IMG/VR virus record: IMGVR_UViG_3300009155_000004
Span: 1 to 63,610 of that record
Source of the DNA: a virus
Lineage: Duplodnaviria > Caudoviricetes
Direction: 5' to 3' (one strand)
Length of the DNA: 63,610 nucleotides
Shown here: piece after piece, positions 17,405 to 27,752 of the stretch
How positions within the stretch are numbered: position 1 is the first letter of the stretch
Layout of the letters: the number at the start of each line of letters is the position of its first letter
Position numbers and translations under genes: made by a program
Notes under the pieces: model-generated
Databases searched by the model: none
Seen by the model: only the letters and a program-made list of their open reading frames with translations
What the model was told of the DNA's origin: nothing

Positions 17405-17630
17405 TCACACCGTACACCGCGCCATCAATGCGCACCTGATGCCCATTGCGCTTGTCAAAGTATATCATGTCGCCCTCTTTTACTGCCAGCACCTCGTTGC
17501 CAACACTCACAACTGTGCCTTTGCCGTAGCGCATCTCGTCATTCTCGACGTTTGTCAATAGCAAACCAGAGGAGGTCTTAGCCTCCTCGATGATTTGATT
17601 GATGATTATGTATTTATTTACAGCTCTCAT
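17367..17630 (-). CDS. groES: Co-chaperonin GroES
   Basis: KTSSGLLL, GTVVSVG, VKEGDMIYF, IKEADVV; ATGA-coupled to groEL. Confidence 0.9.
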   Translation of the reverse strand: MRAVNKYIIINQIIEEAKTSSGLLLTNVENDEMRYGKGTVVSVGNEVLAVKEGDMIYFDKRNGHQVRIDGAVYGVIKEADVVVLLQA

Positions 17631-19165
17631 TTAGCTCTCATGTTATAGATGATACAATTGGTCCCTAAGATTGTCGTAGATACACTCACAGCGTTCTCTA
17701 AGGCATTCTTTGTAACTTTTGAGGGGTCTATGACGCCCATCTCCTTTAAATCGCCTGTAGCGGCTGTTTTGACATTGTATCCAAGGCCCGTTTGTGCAAA
17801 ATTTTCTCTAATCACATCAGCATTGTCAACATTGATGCCTGCATTCTCTAAAATTATGTAGAATGGAGCCACAATTGACGCTGCCATAATCTTTCTGGCA
17901 ATACTATGCTTGTCTTTGGCCCACATTTTCTCGACAATTGACAGTAATGCGTACCCACCACCTGGCAGTATCCCCTCTTCAAGGGCTGCTTTGGTCGCGC
18001 ACACCGCGTCATCCACCCTGTCTTTCTTCTCTTTTTGCTCAATATCACTGCTTGCACCCACATAAATGACAGCAACACCACCTGCAAGGTTCGCAATGCG
18101 CTCTTCTTTGAACGCTGCATCGTCTGTTGTCATCCCTTTGATCTCTTCAATGCGAGCTTTGGCGCTTGCGCTGTCCTTTAGGATCACAACACTGGCATCT
18201 TTACCAACCACGACCTTATTTGCTTGACCAAGGTCACTAATTGTCATCAATGAGAAGTCATCACCCGTGTCATCAGTGATATACTTGCCGCCTGTCGCAA
18301 TTGCCAGGTCAGACATCAGGTCCTGCTTCTTATATCCAAATTGTGGAGGCAAGATCACTGCAACCTTTAATACTCCCTTCATCTTGTTAAGATTCAACGA
18401 GTTAAGCGCATTCTCGCCCATCTCAGAGATGATAAGTATGCTGCGATTCTGTCTGTGCACTTCTGCCAGAATGTGCTCAATGCTTTGTAGTGACGCTATT
18501 TCTTGATCTGAGATCAAGATGTACGGGTTCTCCAGCACAGCCTCTTGTCTCTTCTCGTCTGTCACCATGTACTTGCTTGAGTAGCCACGCTTGATGCGCA
18601 TCCCGTTCACCACCTCAGAGTATGTCATGCTTGTCGATGAGTTCTCAACAGTCACAGCGCCATCCTTGCCCACTTTAATGTACGCGTCAGCCACAATCTC
18701 TCCGATCTCTTTATCGTTGTTTGCAGATATTGTCGCCACGTCAAGCAAGCTGTCGTTTGTTACCGGCACAGCCATGTCGCTCAGGTCTTTGATAATCTCT
18801 TTTGATACTGCCACAATGTCTCTTAGCACAGATGGATCTTTCTCAATCCCTTCAGCGGTGTACGCGTCGATGATGGCCTCTGCGAGCACTAGGGCCGTTG
18901 AAGTTCCGTCTCCCGATATTGTCGCTGTCTTCTCGCTAGCTTCCTTCATCATTGTAACCGCAAGGTTCTCGATTGGATCGTCTAGCACAATTGACTTGGC
19001 AACAGTGACACCGTCCTTCGTTACAACAATACCACGTGTGTGATTCTCTGACTCAATCAGGACAGTCTGCCCCATTGGTCCTAATGTAGACTTGACCGCC
19101 TTCGCTATTTTGCGAACGCCACTCATCAGTCTATCTTGGTTAAATTCAATTTCTTTTACAATCAT
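17627..19165 (-). CDS. groEL: Chaperonin GroEL
   Basis: VKSTLGP, VTKDGVTVAK, GDGTST, EKKDRVDDAVCATKAALEEGILPGGG, GVIDP; promoter motif at 19173-19180. Confidence 0.95.
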   Translation of the reverse strand: MIVKEIEFNQDRLMSGVRKIAKAVKSTLGPMGQTVLIESENHTRGIVVTKDGVTVAKSIVLDDPIENLAVTMMKEASEKTATISGDGTSTALVLAEAIIDAYTAEGIEKDPSVLRDIVAVSKEIIKDLSDMAVPVTNDSLLDVATISANNDKEIGEIVADAYIKVGKDGAVTVENSSTSMTYSEVVNGMRIKRGYSSKYMVTDEKRQEAVLENPYILISDQEIASLQSIEHILAEVHRQNRSILIISEMGENALNSLNLNKMKGVLKVAVILPPQFGYKKQDLMSDLAIATGGKYITDDTGDDFSLMTISDLGQANKVVVGKDASVVILKDSASAKARIEEIKGMTTDDAAFKEERIANLAGGVAVIYVGASSDIEQKEKKDRVDDAVCATKAALEEGILPGGGYALLSIVEKMWAKDKHSIARKIMAASIVAPFYIILENAGINVDNADVIRENFAQTGLGYNVKTAATGDLKEMGVIDPSKVTKNALENAVSVSTTILGTNCIIYNMRAK

Positions 19166-23269: not shown

Positions 23270-23636
23270 CACACTATTTCACCACTTGCACAACGCACAA
23301 ACAAACCTTATCGGTTTCAGTTACAACATTTACAACGGAGGCTTAAATCCTGACAAGGGCTACATGGTCGCAGTAAAAGGCTACGAGGAAACGGCACCAA
23401 AAGACAGCGACATTATCGCATTCGGTAGGGATTACTTTCTTCGCCACGCGACCAAACTAGCCGACCCACACTATTACATGGGCTGTTGGTACAACGACGG
23501 GGAATTTGTTTTCGACATCTCAGAAAATATCCAAACAAAGGAGGTCGCCATCGCCCTAGGTGAACAACAAGAGCAAAGTGCGATATGGGACTGCACTAGT
23601 GGTACCGAGTATCGCTTAATGCGAGAGTTCGATTAA
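23259..23636 (+). CDS. Early protein, possible SAM-lyase-like fold
   Basis: MGCWY...FDIS...AIALGEQQEQSAIWD. Confidence 0.5.
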   Translation: MKHNTLFHHLHNAQTNLIGFSYNIYNGGLNPDKGYMVAVKGYEETAPKDSDIIAFGRDYFLRHATKLADPHYYMGCWYNDGEFVFDISENIQTKEVAIALGEQQEQSAIWDCTSGTEYRLMREFD

Positions 23637-23643
23637 TCACCCA

Positions 23644-23691
23644 TCCCAAGCCATAGGAATGCCGTCGGTTCGAGTCCGACCTTGGGAACCA
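23644..23691 (+). ncRNA. tRNA minihelix-like RNA (acceptor stem + T arm + ACCA)
   Basis: TCCCAAG/CTTGGGA 7 bp, GTCGG/CCGAC 5 bp, loop TTCGAGT, ends ACCA; only 13 nt where the D and anticodon arms would be. Confidence 0.7.
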
Positions 23692-23693
23692 CT

Positions 23694-23954
23694 ATGAATA
23701 AATTACATCAAATCAACAAGGCGCAAAGGTCACTAGGTGCTGACTTTATGCAAGGATTAATTAACAACGGACAAGCATGGCAAATGGAAGGCTCTATGGG
23801 TCGCCAATGTATGGATGCATTACGTTCGGGCATGTGTATGTTACCTAAGAAGGCATTTACTGATGCTTATGGGAATAGGGTACCTAGCCGTGACGAACTA
23901 AAGCAAGGAAGCATGGGAACCTATGTAAACACTTTAAACTATTATAACATATGA
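23694..23954 (+). CDS. Early hypothetical protein
   Basis: MQGLINNGQAWQMEGSMGR...DAYGNRVPSRD. Confidence 0.6.
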   Translation: MNKLHQINKAQRSLGADFMQGLINNGQAWQMEGSMGRQCMDALRSGMCMLPKKAFTDAYGNRVPSRDELKQGSMGTYVNTLNYYNI

Positions 23955-24112
23955 CAAACGAACAAATAAACGACATGATTATGTCAATTGACTACGCTAT
24001 TAATTTAATAGAGTTAAATTACAATAGTGATATTGACGACAGGGAAATTATTGTACACAACTTACAACAACTAGACAACGCAATTGACGAATTAAAAAAA
24101 CTAAAACTATGA
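23951..24112 (+). CDS. Small early protein (53 aa, not in ORF track)
   Basis: ATGA overlaps at both ends. Confidence 0.5.
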   Translation: MTNEQINDMIMSIDYAINLIELNYNSDIDDREIIVHNLQQLDNAIDELKKLKL

Positions 24113-24420
24113 ACGACTTACAAAAACTAGACAGGCAATACTTTTGGGTGGAACGCCCAAAGGTAGTACTCGAGGAACTACAAAAATATTTTGACCATGT
24201 TGAAGACGTGACCTACATGAACGACGGCGCACCAAGTTTAGAGATAAATGAGAGGTACTATCTATTCATGCCGACATCAACGCGCACAAACCACGACAAC
24301 GAGGAATACAATTATTATATGATAGTGGAGAGTGAAAATTACGGCACAAACGCGCGAACAATTGAGTGTGACACCTTAGACAAAGCAATCGACGAACTAT
24401 ATCAAATAATAGCATTATGA
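24109..24420 (+). CDS. Early hypothetical protein
   Basis: EDVTYMNDGAPSL; coupled to neighbours. Confidence 0.55.
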   Translation: MNDLQKLDRQYFWVERPKVVLEELQKYFDHVEDVTYMNDGAPSLEINERYYLFMPTSTRTNHDNEEYNYYMIVESENYGTNARTIECDTLDKAIDELYQIIAL

Positions 24421-24659
24421 TAACGAAACGCGAATATTTCGACAAGTTGACAACGGGCGCAAAATTGGATTACCCCGACCTTTCGATCCAAATTGATGAC
24501 ATCATCGACGAGATGCTAAGCCAATGCGAGATTGAGAACGAACCAACTGATGCCGACCTTTTGGATGCCGAGCAACAATTGAACGACCTTATCGAGCGCA
24601 ACCAAGAGCCAGTACAAGAGCCAACACAATGGTGTACAATTAAAGAGATAGAACAATGA
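24417..24659 (+). CDS. Acidic early protein
   Basis: Asp/Glu-rich, 80 aa. Confidence 0.55.
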   Translation: MITKREYFDKLTTGAKLDYPDLSIQIDDIIDEMLSQCEIENEPTDADLLDAEQQLNDLIERNQEPVQEPTQWCTIKEIEQ

Positions 24660-24925
24660 AAAGGATATCTAAACAAGCAAAGGCAATTGCTGATGCTCAC
24701 ATTCAGGCAAGGATAAACGGAACATTTGACGACCCAAATTTCAGCACAAAGGATGAACTTATACAACTATTAAATGAAGGCAAAACATTTTCGGGATTGC
24801 TTGACAGAATAGAAATGAAGTATACCTCAATCACTTCAATTTTGCTATCTAGAACAATGTTTTTCAATAGCCAAAACTACAAGAGTGGTATATACAAGGG
24901 ATTCAAAATACTTTTAGATAATTAA
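24656..24925 (+). CDS. Early hypothetical protein
   Basis: ATGA-coupled. Confidence 0.5.
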   Translation: MKRISKQAKAIADAHIQARINGTFDDPNFSTKDELIQLLNEGKTFSGLLDRIEMKYTSITSILLSRTMFFNSQNYKSGIYKGFKILLDN

Positions 24926-24990
24926 AAAACTTTACACAAAACTGACAAAACTATTTTTTTATTCACAAGATAACAACTAATATTGCACTG

Positions 24991-25314
24991 ATGATTACTA
25001 AACAAGATATTTTAGACGTGGCACTACAATTAGAGATGCCAATTACTGACAAGCAAATAAATTACGTTTTAGAGAACTATTCTGAGACGGGCGAAATTTG
25101 GAACGTACAAGTTGAAGACTTGTTATACCAATGCGAACCAAAAGTTTGCGACATCACGGGTGAAACCATGACTGAGGGATGGGTTGCCAATGATGGCGAA
25201 ATGTACTTCAAGTACGAGAAAGATGCCCTTGCATGGTGCATTGAGAATGGCTACGAAAGTATTGAGGATGCCTACAACGAAGAGGCAATCTACTATACTG
25301 AGTGGGAGGATTAA
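24991..25314 (+). CDS. Highly acidic early protein
   Basis: 26 D/E vs 5 K and 0 R in 107 aa; C-terminal YYTEWED. Confidence 0.6.
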   Translation: MITKQDILDVALQLEMPITDKQINYVLENYSETGEIWNVQVEDLLYQCEPKVCDITGETMTEGWVANDGEMYFKYEKDALAWCIENGYESIEDAYNEEAIYYTEWED

Positions 25315-25356
25315 TACATTGCTCTAATGGGGTAACTCCCCATTAAAGCAACCAAG

Positions 25357-25565
25357 AAGTTCTTTGACGTACGGGGCGAATTAAGTGTAACAACTTAATA
25401 GGTGGGTGCTAACAATCCGTTAGCGTGAATTGACGAGGACTAGTCAATACCTACTGAAGGCGAGAATACATGGTTGCGAGAGTCCCTCGCATTGAATGAG
25501 CACGGAACAACTCAGCCAACCACACGACAAGCGCAGAGCGATACTTCGGTGTATCCGTGTGGGCA
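25357..25565 (+). ncRNA. Candidate multi-stem structured RNA preceded by a boxA-like motif
   Basis: At least six stems in an ORF-free gap; complementary loops GGACT (25437-41) and AGTCC (25481-85); AAGTTCTTTGAC at 25357. Confidence 0.6.
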
Positions 25566-25611
25566 ACTTAACACTAAATTATAACAAACACACAACACTA
25601 AAATATAACTT

Positions 25612-25839
25612 ATGAACCTATTTAGAATTAACACCACGGCATTTCACGAGGAAGATTTCACAATCTACACCGACTTAAACAAAGAGCAAGTTACTGACAT
25701 CATCACACCCATTGTAAAAGATGAACGTGATGGTGGCTACGGTTACTACAACGACGATTTGGTTAGCGCATTAAAGAACGCATATCCAAACAACTTTATC
25801 TCACAACGATACAACGAACCTGAAATGATATCAATATGA
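25612..25839 (+). CDS. Early hypothetical protein
   Basis: INTTAFHEEDF...YYNDDLVSALK. Confidence 0.6.
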   Translation: MNLFRINTTAFHEEDFTIYTDLNKEQVTDIITPIVKDERDGGYGYYNDDLVSALKNAYPNNFISQRYNEPEMISI

Positions 25840-26042
25840 ATATAACAATAAACATTTTGGAGGTTGCAAGTGATCTTGCACACCAAAGATTAATCGAAGA
25901 CTGGGCATCAATAGGCAATAGTGATATTCCATTGTACAACGGAGAGAATTATTGTGAAGAGGCTCAAGACATTTTTAACGATTACTAAGACACTTATTAT
26001 TTAATATTAGAAAGCGCAAACTATGAAACTAACGAACGATAA
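25836..26042 (+). pseudogene. Small gene with a possible premature TAA at 25986
   Basis: ...EEAQDIFNDY*DTYYLILES...; the frame stays open to the next gene. Confidence 0.35.
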
Positions 26043-26325
26043 CTTTGTATGGGACATTGTCTCAACGAATGAGGTAACAGATGCCTACGCAAAAGGTGAA
26101 GTATTTATTTTGCACGACGATGACACAGAGACGTTGTACACGGGCGAACCAATTGACGAGAGTTTAACGTACGGCACTGAGATTGGGTGGCTTAAAGATA
26201 TAGACGACAGACAAATCTTAACATTGTTAGCAGTACGCAAGTACGGGCATCTAAAAGACCATGACCTAATATGGCGCTTTGTTGCGCTTTCAACCAACGG
26301 ACTAATTAACATGATATGCAACTGA
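26023..26325 (+). CDS. Hypothetical protein
   Basis: VFILHDDDTET. Confidence 0.55.
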   Translation: MKLTNDNFVWDIVSTNEVTDAYAKGEVFILHDDDTETLYTGEPIDESLTYGTEIGWLKDIDDRQILTLLAVRKYGHLKDHDLIWRFVALSTNGLINMICN

Positions 26326-26651
26326 TTAACGGCAAGTTCTACGTTAACGGCAAAGAAGTGCCAGTAGAGATAGGGAACAAGGAGCAAATCGCATTGCTCC
26401 AAGAAAGGCAGAAGTTAATGGATGAGGGCGCAAAGATTGACATAATAACCGACGAGGTGATAACGCATACAATCGCAGCGACATTCAAATGCCCGTCATG
26501 TGGCAAAACCAATTACATAGACGACGATAGCGAATACCACTTTGATGATTCGGACATTAAAGATTTGCTCGAATCAGAAAGTTCTTGTAATCATTGTGGT
26601 CAAGACTTTGAATTAATTTTAAGGGACGGAAAATATAAGTATATGTTATGA
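26316..26651 (+). CDS. Zn-ribbon protein
   Basis: CPSC...CNHC. Confidence 0.6.
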   Translation: MQLINGKFYVNGKEVPVEIGNKEQIALLQERQKLMDEGAKIDIITDEVITHTIAATFKCPSCGKTNYIDDDSEYHFDDSDIKDLLESESSCNHCGQDFELILRDGKYKYML

Positions 26652-26926
26652 CAGAAGTCGTCTGCATTAAAACACATAGCCAAGGGATTGTCAAGGAGGG
26701 GGAGATTTACCCTCTGCTTGACACGAGGGCTGACTGCTCATGTGGTGCAACGATGTACGACATTGGAGCAACAAACAATGCCATGTACCAAACGTGTTGG
26801 TGTGGCAAGGAGTCTATAAGAAAGAGTAAGACATGGTGGTTAGATAGCAGATTGTTTGCCATCCCAAATTTGGAGGAAATATATGGAGAATTATATCTTG
26901 AAGAGGCACAGAATGGGGCTCACTAA
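26648..26926 (+). CDS. Cys-rich hypothetical protein
   Basis: VVCIK, CSCG, CWCG, DSRLFA. Confidence 0.55.
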   Translation: MTEVVCIKTHSQGIVKEGEIYPLLDTRADCSCGATMYDIGATNNAMYQTCWCGKESIRKSKTWWLDSRLFAIPNLEEIYGELYLEEAQNGAH

Positions 26927-27188
26927 GACCCTTGACGACGCAGCGCATGAGTTAAAAGATTTACTCGCATTGACCACGGGTAAAACAGTAAAAGATTGCA
27001 AAATGAGATTACAAGTAAAGCAAATATTAAATAGTTATGACATGGGGTTCCACACGACCTTGTCCGATATGGTATCGGAGTTTATGCTGATCGTTAACTT
27101 AACTGACAAAAAGAATTTAAACTACAAAGAATGCGAAGAATTATTTTTATCTTATTGCTCGGTATTGGGCAGACAAGGGCTCAAGTAG
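26913..27188 (+). CDS. Hypothetical protein
   Basis: Likely start MGLTKT. Confidence 0.45.
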   Translation: MGLTKTLDDAAHELKDLLALTTGKTVKDCKMRLQVKQILNSYDMGFHTTLSDMVSEFMLIVNLTDKKNLNYKECEELFLSYCSVLGRQGLK

Positions 27189-27439
27189 TTGAGAGTTTGG
27201 ATAGCCAACGGCTGACATCATTAGATACGGCTATAGGTAAGGGATGGGTAACAAGTGTATACTTGAATACGGGATACGACAAGGAGGGGTTAGATTATAT
27301 CCCTCCGATACAATTAAAGAAACTCTCAAGGATGGGCGACTATTACATACGATGTATGCTAGACGACTACTATTATTTTGAGATAATAATTATTAATTTT
27401 AAACTAGAATATATATATACAAACGACAAAGATGAATAA
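27131..27439 (+). CDS. Hypothetical protein with signal peptide
   Basis: MRRIIFILLLGIGQTRAQ. Confidence 0.5.
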   Translation: MRRIIFILLLGIGQTRAQVVESLDSQRLTSLDTAIGKGWVTSVYLNTGYDKEGLDYIPPIQLKKLSRMGDYYIRCMLDDYYYFEIIIINFKLEYIYTNDKDE

Positions 27440-27752
27440 CATAATAAAAGGCGATAAGGTATTTATTGCAAAATTAGAGGATGTAATATTCCAGTACACG
27501 GGAATAGATACAGAGGTAATCAAAAGCAAGACAAGGAAGTCAGAGATTGTAACAATTAGATTCATCCAAGCATGGCTGATGAAGAAGTACACGTTCATGT
27601 CATTGTGCAGTATTGGGAAGCACATGGGTGGACGTGATCACAGCACAATCATCCACGTGATCAAGACAATTGAGGATTGGTACGAGCAACCTAAGATGTT
27701 TGCACCTGAATTAAGGATGCTTGAGGCAATAGAGAGAGAGGTAAAGATATGA
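27432..27752 (+). CDS. Stand-alone DnaA domain IV-like HTH protein
   Basis: SKTRKSEIVTIR...SLCSIGKHMGGRDHSTIIH matches the DnaA C-terminal signature. Confidence 0.85.
   Translation: MNNIIKGDKVFIAKLEDVIFQYTGIDTEVIKSKTRKSEIVTIRFIQAWLMKKYTFMSLCSIGKHMGGRDHSTIIHVIKTIEDWYEQPKMFAPELRMLEAIEREVKI

Follow-up and report, generated by a model that had tools for sequence, protein, structure and literature searches.

An ORF-free gap of a phage genome (the window, a complete virus record of 63,610 bp with direct terminal repeats) encodes a conserved plus-strand structured RNA that has no Rfam family. Near the 5′ end of this RNA stands a box that, by its sequence, is a match to the boxA of the rRNA operons of the host group. 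The reading preferred here, to which we give a probability of about one half, is that the element is a nut-like site for the loading of NusB and S10, joined to a new modular structured RNA in the replication-side operon, and that it would serve anti-termination. The RNA family is new and has good covariation, with 17 sequences in two sub-families and one relative that keeps a junction only; that it recurs and is inherited as a block points to a function worth looking for.

Genomic setting and parts of the RNA

Minus-strand blocks of the genome encode the terminase, the portal, the virion proteins and a GroEL-like chaperonin, the last at 17627-19165 (-) with a match to PHROG 5725 (E 2.6e-128). 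The plus-strand block, at ~21.8-44.9 kb, begins with ~30 small ORFs lacking an assigned function; later in it come a Sak-like annealing protein, exonucleases, a primase/helicase, a helicase and ribonucleotide reductase, and ORF 40300-40779 contains tandem repeats of 12 nt and ~90 nt (40365-40561, +). By comparison of the primase, the nearest named phages are those of Flavobacterium, Polaribacter, Cellulophaga and other Bacteroidota. The DNA runs that contain parts of the phage are mostly labelled as freshwater metagenome, and no RNA run carrying it is among the 22 runs listed. Neither the ORFs beside the element nor the giant proteins gave an informative family or a solved relative. No phage RNA polymerase was recognised among the window proteins; a 2786-aa protein without assignable function is a possible candidate for a divergent virion RNA polymerase, which would ignore Nus factors.

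The gap spans 297 nt (25315-25611), between ORF 24991-25314 and ORF 25612-25839, and the element lies ~3.6 kb inside the operon, away from its start. As candidates for a promoter upstream of it, sigma-70-like sites occur at chance level (23 found, 22.0 expected) and were set aside; no Bacteroidota -7 promoter motif was seen by eye after the box in the window.

Regarding the fold, the minimum free energy (MFE) of the plus strand is -78.6 kcal/mol, compared with -64.2 ± 4.6 kcal/mol in shuffled sequences (z -3.14), and 0 of 200 shuffles were as low; the minus strand folds comparably (-86.6 kcal/mol, z -3.19). The parts of the RNA are collected in Table 1. All the stems that the preliminary description had listed for this ORF-free gap of ~300 nt are present as described, and its loops GGACT (25437-25441) and AGTCC (25481-25485) are complementary; its outer stem TGGTT/AACCA, instead, is not the best-supported pairing. 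At that place, TGGT (25471-25474) with GCCA (25515-25518) is preferred, because it fits the most divergent relative (L202, with GGGT/GCCT) and because it leaves intact the 7-bp stem of the 3′ domain, which covaries in the sister family.

P1 starts 6 nt past the stop codon of ORF 24991-25314; its sequence is variable and its structure is retained. The box is unpaired in the centroid structure and has 6 nt paired in the MFE structure, where its partner lies in the linker, a segment deleted or replaced in two relatives (L201 and L205). As for the 3′ end, the A/C-rich leader (25563-25611) is outside the conserved block; the tail is unstructured and the start codon of the downstream ORF is not sequestered in the predicted fold. 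This leader (25577-25609 of the window) is found repeated before extra small ORFs at two other loci (L002:1182-1225; L003:2505-2544 and 2734-2763), like a portable translation-start cassette.

Table 1. Parts of the structured RNA in the gap (positions of the window)
Feature	Position	Strand	Composition
P1 hairpin	25320-25350	+	TAATGGGG 25325-25332 / CCCCATTA 25338-25345, extended by TGCT/AGCA
boxA AAGTTCTTTGAC	25357-25368	+	core GTTCTTTGAC 25359-25368; conserved extension to 25379
P2 hairpin	25380-25399	+	ATTAAGT/ACTTAAT, 7 bp; optional; directly 3′ of the box
Three-way junction 1	25401-25455	+	7-bp outer stem, hairpins h1 and h2
Junction 1 h1			GCTAAC/GTTAGC, 6 bp, loop AATCC
Junction 1 h2			ATTGAC/GTCAAT, 6 bp, loop GAGGACTA
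Variable-length linker	25456-25470	+	in L201 and L205, shorter by 9 nt and of other sequence
Three-way junction 2	25471-25518	+	outer stem TGGT/GCCA, spacer TTGAA between the hairpins; common to the sister family
Junction 2 h1			TGCGAG/CTCGCA, loop AGTCC
Junction 2 h2			TGAG/CTCA, loop containing GGAACA
3′ domain	25520-25562	+	CACG/CGTG, extending to 7-bp CCACACG/CGTGTGG, around hairpin GATAC/GTATC
A/C-rich leader	25563-25611	+	unpaired in MFE and centroid; ends at the ATG of ORF 25612-25839

Searches for a described relative of this RNA were made with Rfam release 15 (4227 models). The scan of the whole window at gathering score gave 0 matches, and in that of 25200-25700 with permissive filters the sole match was to a miRNA, at chance level (E 9.1); it is this second scan that counts, because the first missed the tRNA at 41100. 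The sister-family loci had no Rfam match at gathering score, and neither ARAGORN nor the Rfam tRNA model found a tRNA in the gap or in the sister loci. The proposal of a structured RNA outside the described families was therefore borne out, no Rfam family matching it. By sequence, blastn of the gap against 50,697 phage records gave no match, and a sequence-only nhmmer profile recovered the close clade only among 76 loci. One pattern scan returned 15 stretches, the real ones being the known clades and the contig of L041 only; another returned 71, with the hairpin in the two families only. Two candidates were rejected, namely a three-way junction at L055/L073, which lies inside a 310-aa ORF, and GenBank MW202828.1 (primase 58.7% identical), with no large gap in the syntenic 7 kb and no match to R1, the model of the window clade.

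Conservation and covariation in two families

Nine distinct window-type sequences, the window included, came from searches with the flanking proteins, from DNA patterns and from one metagenome scan. Covariation was evaluated for a 64-pair structure on their MAFFT alignment, with slid partners and 500 column shuffles as controls. Pairing holds in 98.7% of 554 cells, compared with 34-40% for slid partners, and both sides have changed in 17 of the 64 pairs, compared with 0-3; 0 of the 500 shuffles reached the observed values. G·U cells outnumber A·C cells in the window type (25 vs 4) and in the sister family (18 vs 3), an excess which indicates that selection acts on the plus-strand fold, at the level of RNA.

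Covariation is strongest in P1, in h1 of junction 2 and in the 3′ hairpin. In P1, 8 of 12 pairs have changed on both sides and 97.2% of the cells are paired over the nine sequences; both-sided changes occur also in four of the six h1 pairs and one of the four h2 pairs of junction 2, and in two of the five pairs of the inner hairpin of the 3′ domain. The P2 hairpin is present in seven of the nine sequences and absent in L201 and L205, with a single both-sided change, in L202. As for junction 1, its helices (3-5) are 100% paired, h2 has an AT to GC compensation in three of the nine sequences, and the outer stem alternates between G·U and G-C; in this stem, as in that of the 3′ domain, changes are one-sided or absent. 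A small protein encoded by the gap was considered and discarded: the ORFs are not conserved, and L202 has lost the ATG at 25496.

In relatives with 82-90% identity in the flanking proteins, the identity of the element itself is 91-95%. The block 25359-25566 is retained in contigs of four DNA runs, with 7 differing letters out of 208 and with its flanks swapped; the joints fall at 25273>25359, where P1 is replaced, and at 25564/25566>25577, where the downstream leader is replaced. In one relative's contig, the P1 segment is replaced by 87 other letters, and the downstream gene is variable: in L002, L003 and run X13 the element is followed by an insertion, either of other ORFs or of 240 letters. 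More generally, over 23500-27500 of the window the contigs of relatives have a gene-by-gene mosaicism in which small ORFs are skipped or replaced and the joints lie at gene borders.

The sister family has eight members (L015, L096, L165, L174, L182, L186, L198 and L211), from phages with a primase 65-67% identical and a gap of 350-400 nt at the syntenic place, ~8.6 kb upstream of the primase gene. The box, one three-way junction and the 3′ domain are common to both families. The sister sequences fold with z between -4.2 and -4.7, and their 77-pair structure is 98.3% paired, with both-sided changes in 17 pairs compared with 0-3 for slid partners; these include 6 of the 10 pairs of a hairpin at the place of P1, and junction B and the stem of the 3′ domain covary as well. 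The covariation anticipated for the RNA is thus found in both families, with 17 covarying pairs in each. R1 gives end-to-end alignments for L165 (26.6 bits, E 1.6e-7) and L174 (32.5 bits, E 2.4e-9), pairing box with box, junction 2 with junction B and 3′ domain with 3′ domain; in both sequences, junction B has the loop AGUCY, the spacer UUGAA and a loop with GGAACA.

The 3′ domain of the sister family consists of a 7-bp stem, a small hairpin and a T-loop-like hairpin, GGGG-UUCAAAU-CCCC, that adjoins the 3′ strand; as modelled, it looks like a tRNA-like acceptor/T-arm minihelix, and its match to the mascRNA model is weak (21.3 bits, E 1.7). A further 3′ hairpin is followed by 5 U in L015 and L096 and by none in L165, with shorter or interrupted U-runs in three other members. 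Modules come and go, L096 having no junction A. In a third relative, L041 (primase 59%), only junction 1 is found at the syntenic place, by R1 (17.6 bits, E 0.0018), with both its hairpin stems changed.

The loops GGACU and AGUCC can form 5 bp in nine of nine window-type sequences, where the only changes, C to U and A to G, give wobble pairs. In the sister family, the complementarity is 4 bp in five of seven members and 2 bp in the other two, and in L096 the partner module of the pair is absent. As an alternative, a 3-bp GGA:UCC contact could form within each junction, and this one is broken by U to C variants of the loop. A kissing-loop pairing between the junctions is put forward as a hypothesis.

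The box and the boxA of rRNA operons

The box has a consensus common to both families, GTTCWTTGAC-R-TA-N-K-GG-R-CGA, of 21-23 nt (25359-25379 of the window), which is the only long block of primary sequence found in both; it is nearly invariant, whereas the surrounding stems vary. The window has a single copy, on the coding strand and in the orientation of all the ORFs at ~21.8-44.9 kb, so that the structured RNA and ~19 kb of operon are downstream of it. In five of the nine window-type sequences the box reads GTTCATTGAC, with an altered U-run, a change that, judging from the letters, could weaken the binding of NusB.

A metagenome scan for the box pattern gave 40 stretches: 6 of the window type, 5 of the sister type, 1 bacterial rRNA operon (L197) and 4 further phage-like stretches (L175/L191 and L183/L190) in which the box follows a tRNA-like element; most of the other 24 read as coding sequence. 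Locus L197, which by Rfam contains 16S, two tRNAs, 23S and 5S, has the exact 21-mer of the sister family 85 nt before 23S, and a second core copy, AAGAAGTTCTTTGAA, ~89 nt before 16S, with 14 letters in common with the window box and its 5′ flank. The presence of boxA in both the leader and the spacer is the classical arrangement of rRNA operons. Two observations concern the L197 spacer itself: on its minus strand, between the tRNAs (6337) and the box (5741), a structured unit of ~117 nt is repeated three times in tandem, and a T-arm-like fragment is found upstream of boxA there too.

The sample of bacterial genomes covers one phylum, identified via a Chitinophagaceae genome and hence Bacteroidota. 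The motif GTTCTTTGA occurs 95-125 nt before the 23S start motif in at least 18 of 301 genomes and 75-105 nt before the 16S start in at least 15 of 101, both being lower bounds because many of the sampled genomes are incomplete; the reversed pattern gave 0 in each case. One genome spacer has 18 letters in common with the sister-family box. Another genome pattern scan returned 33 stretches, and no start motif of 16S or 23S stands within 400 nt of any of them. The likeness to the boxA of Bacteroidota rRNA operons, proposed in the preliminary description, is real, since the core precedes 16S and 23S in L197 and in sampled Bacteroidota genomes; the comparison with rRNA leaders gives a match at the level of the phylum, not of the phage's own host. 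Some 16S leaders of Bacteroidota (genomes G021 and G095) also contain GAGTCCCAGTCC ~20 nt after the leader boxA, and this 12-mer is the loop and 3′ strand of junction B h1 in the sister family (L015:1428-1441); the shared letters could be due to chance (a few percent by a rough estimate) or to further mimicry of the leader.

The window box resembles the boxA consensus of both E. coli, UGCUCUUUAACA, and B. subtilis, AUGAUCUUUGAAA, as given in PMC13753749, where rRNA leaders are also described as a hairpin followed by boxA. No report of boxA anti-termination in Bacteroidota or their phages was found in open-access texts.

Viral contigs were scanned for GTTCTTTGA at a distance of 12-42 nt after a T-loop motif, a pattern that requires a T-loop, so that the association with tRNAs is there by design. 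At least 116 IMG/VR contigs (loci L257-L371) have the box after tRNA or tRNA-like genes. Among the matches listed, the box is often 0-12 nt after the tRNA end, sometimes between the tRNAs of large phage arrays; at 62 of 119 sites, ARAGORN reports a same-strand tRNA whose end is 0-40 nt upstream, and over the 109 unique sites with sufficient sequence downstream the bases after the box are non-random, with the consensus M-A-T-A-T-T-G/A-R, as in rRNA spacer boxes. A promoter reading of the box was rejected, the Bacteroidota -7 motif following it in 2 of the 109 sites among the matches listed. The extended box after tRNA or tRNA-like genes in these contigs fits an action of the box next to untranslated RNA genes and suggests a wider rule for the expression of untranslated RNA in phages.

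Two other phage-like loci have the same box. In L175:2259-2445, a stop-codon hairpin and then a cloverleaf-like element, whose 'anticodon' loop AUCCA has 5 nt, precede the box, and one hairpin and an ORF come after it. In the GC-rich L160:4108-4768, a non-coding stretch of 660 nt, the box is preceded by a T-arm-like hairpin, and several CUGUGAAGG hairpins are present. Elsewhere on the former contig (L175:40-97, +) there is a complete core of a type III hammerhead ribozyme, at 36.3 bits (threshold 48.5; E 7e-5). The window itself has a second ORF-free stretch, of ~800 nt (40978-41780, +), with a tRNA at 41100-41186 (37.3 bits) that has an 8-nt anticodon loop and a long variable arm and that ARAGORN reports as tRNA-??? 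with anticodon ttga; two tRNA-like units of ~125 nt with large insertions follow, at 41351-41476 (25.1 bits, sub-threshold) and, as a repeat, near 41591-41714. At 41008-41043 (+) there is a hairpin similar to the abiF RNA motif of Rfam, with 28.5 bits against a threshold of 37 (E 0.0075); should the likeness be real, this could be a phage copy of an RNA linked to abortive infection, possibly used in counter-defence.

Proposed action, rival explanations and known systems

In the anti-termination reading, the RNA would be co-transcribed with the rightward operon, that is, with the small genes of unassigned function and then the replication genes; its parts stand in the order P1, boxA copy (predicted to be single-stranded), optional hairpin, two three-way junctions and 3′ stem domain. 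As the nascent box leaves the host RNA polymerase it would be bound by NusB-S10, which, with NusG and NusA, would make the polymerase resist termination, chiefly by Rho; the resistance may extend to intrinsic terminators. The polymerase would then cross the untranslated RNA of 300 nt and the rest of the operon, including the tRNA-like stretch of 800 nt at 40978-41780; both untranslated segments would be natural targets of Rho. The junction modules, in turn, may be a cargo RNA that is folded under the complex and then cut out.

On the plus strand, no intrinsic terminator is recognisable from the element to 43593, and the one at 43593 is the sole convincing one downstream, so that before this position Rho-dependent termination is the only possible target. 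In the sister family, the layout is box, structured RNA, terminator-like hairpin and next gene, which resembles a nut/terminator checkpoint. Against the anti-termination reading stand this want of a recognisable intrinsic terminator before 43593, the GTTCATTGAC variant of the box, the position of the element ~3.6 kb into the operon and the possible phage polymerase; it should be noted that even this best explanation leaves the role of the junction modules unaccounted for.

Tentatively, the element can also be seen as the gene of a stable small RNA that acts in trans, with modules cut by RNase III, P or Z and directed at a host target, where they might serve as a tRNA-like decoy or as a protein sponge; the box would then protect the synthesis of this RNA or be incidental. 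Several features fit: conservation is higher in the structured part, which moves as a unit, than in the genes beside it, the downstream gene differs among relatives, most sister members end in a hairpin and a short U-run like a stand-alone RNA gene, and the 3′ domain is acceptor/T-arm-like, with the weak mascRNA-like match (21.3 bits, E 1.7). Conversely, no promoter is evident upstream (23 sigma-70-like sites, 22.0 expected) and the window type has no terminator. Such a small RNA is compatible with anti-termination and not exclusive of it. In a broader proposal, which we regard as improbable, phages of Bacteroidota would mimic the leader or spacer of host rRNA operons, with boxA recruiting the full anti-termination and RNA-chaperone complex to the polymerase within a phage operon, in the making of tRNA-shaped three-way-junction RNAs that are cut out and act in trans. 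If this were true, such RNAs might be decoys for tRNA-targeting host defences or, as an alternative to decoys, RNA-only assemblies held by the conserved GGAYU:RGUCC loop pairing; moreover, the presence of the box behind tRNA genes, seen in at least 116 viral contigs, would mark a general phage strategy for untranslated RNA genes.

The mosaic flanks, with joints right at the edges of the block, and the phage contigs L175 and L160, in which the box directly follows a tRNA-like element, an arrangement known from spacers, could be read as traces of a captured fragment of a host rRNA spacer or tRNA region, a functionless recombination module kept by hitch-hiking. This is quite improbable, given that 17 compensatory pairs in each of two diverged families imply selection on the fold and that the box is nearly invariant while the surrounding stems change; beyond the box, furthermore, no likeness to the L197 spacer is seen by eye, and R1, with the box included, has no match in L197. 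We give little credit to the view that abundant phage boxA RNA titrates NusB-S10 away from host rRNA operons and so aids host shut-off: the sister box is identical over 21 nt to a host-type spacer boxA and is embedded in a highly structured, hence probably stable, RNA, but the U-run is changed in five of the nine window-type copies, a single copy per genome makes a weak sponge unless very highly expressed, and among the 22 runs listed there is no RNA run with the phage to speak for abundance. An element acting at the level of DNA, be it a replication origin, a hairpin promoter or a recombination site, is very unlikely. In its favour, the minus strand has an equally good fold (-86.6 kcal/mol, z -3.19) and the cumulative GC skew is lowest near 22-26 kb. 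This low point, however, falls together with the change of coding strand near 21-22 kb, the gap contains no iterons or direct repeats, and G·U is tolerated on the plus strand only (25 vs 4 and 18 vs 3 A·C). Least likely of all is a riboswitch or cis-regulator of the downstream 75-aa gene, for which the place of the element, directly upstream of that ORF, would be suitable. In riboswitches, too, there are three-way junctions whose loops interact; nevertheless, the downstream gene is not constant (L002, L003, run X13), no expression platform is visible, the tail being unstructured and the start codon free, and there is no Rfam match.

Returning to anti-termination, the system brought about by boxA and the Nus factors is textbook knowledge for lambda and for enterobacterial rRNA operons. 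With the boxA of rRNA operons, the element shares the core GUUCUUUGA(C/A), the one found before 16S and 23S in Bacteroidota, and the sister family shares 18-21 letters with the spacer boxes; in addition, the box is predicted to be single-stranded in the centroid fold, and a hairpin precedes it, as in the rRNA leaders described in PMC13753749. The differences are that the phage operon places it between protein genes and that a phage-specific structured RNA follows, not rRNA. Since the defined box of 21 nt is identical, in the sister family, to a host-type spacer box, the use of boxA in phages becomes testable.

As for lambda nutL and nutR, the likeness is that of a phage boxA on the nascent early-side transcript with a hairpin after it, and the presumed common outcome would be processive anti-termination dependent on Nus factors, as set out for lambda (PMC2800207, PMC2724277). 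Unlike lambda nut, the box is of the host rRNA type, the host is of another phylum and ~200 nt of extra conserved structure are present. The element does not qualify as a nut site of the lambda type: P2 is absent in two of the nine relatives, and Pfam and PHROG searches found no N-like protein among the neighbouring ORFs, bearing in mind that small N-like proteins could escape such searches.

Another comparison is with the gammaproteobacterial boxA found before CRISPR arrays and suhB, which keeps Rho off long untranslated RNA (PMC13753749). Likewise, what follows the box of the element is a structured RNA that is not translated, and other phage contigs have the box next to tRNA arrays; it differs in its phage context and in the phylum, and a similar function would be suggested by analogy. 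The put RNA of HK022 and EAR are cis-acting anti-terminator RNAs that act on the polymerase itself and are not known to carry a boxA. By analogy with them, a multi-hairpin RNA in a long operon could modify the polymerase, and the difference is that the element has a boxA and no Rfam family match. Finally, the 3′ domain of the sister family, with its stacked T-loop-like hairpin, is like that of tRNA-like RNAs such as mascRNA-type minihelices and viral tRNA-like structures, whereas neither ARAGORN nor Rfam at threshold reports a tRNA and the loop of the window type is TTCGGT, not a T-loop. In conclusion, the element joins a known kind of signal, boxA, to a new family of structured RNA.
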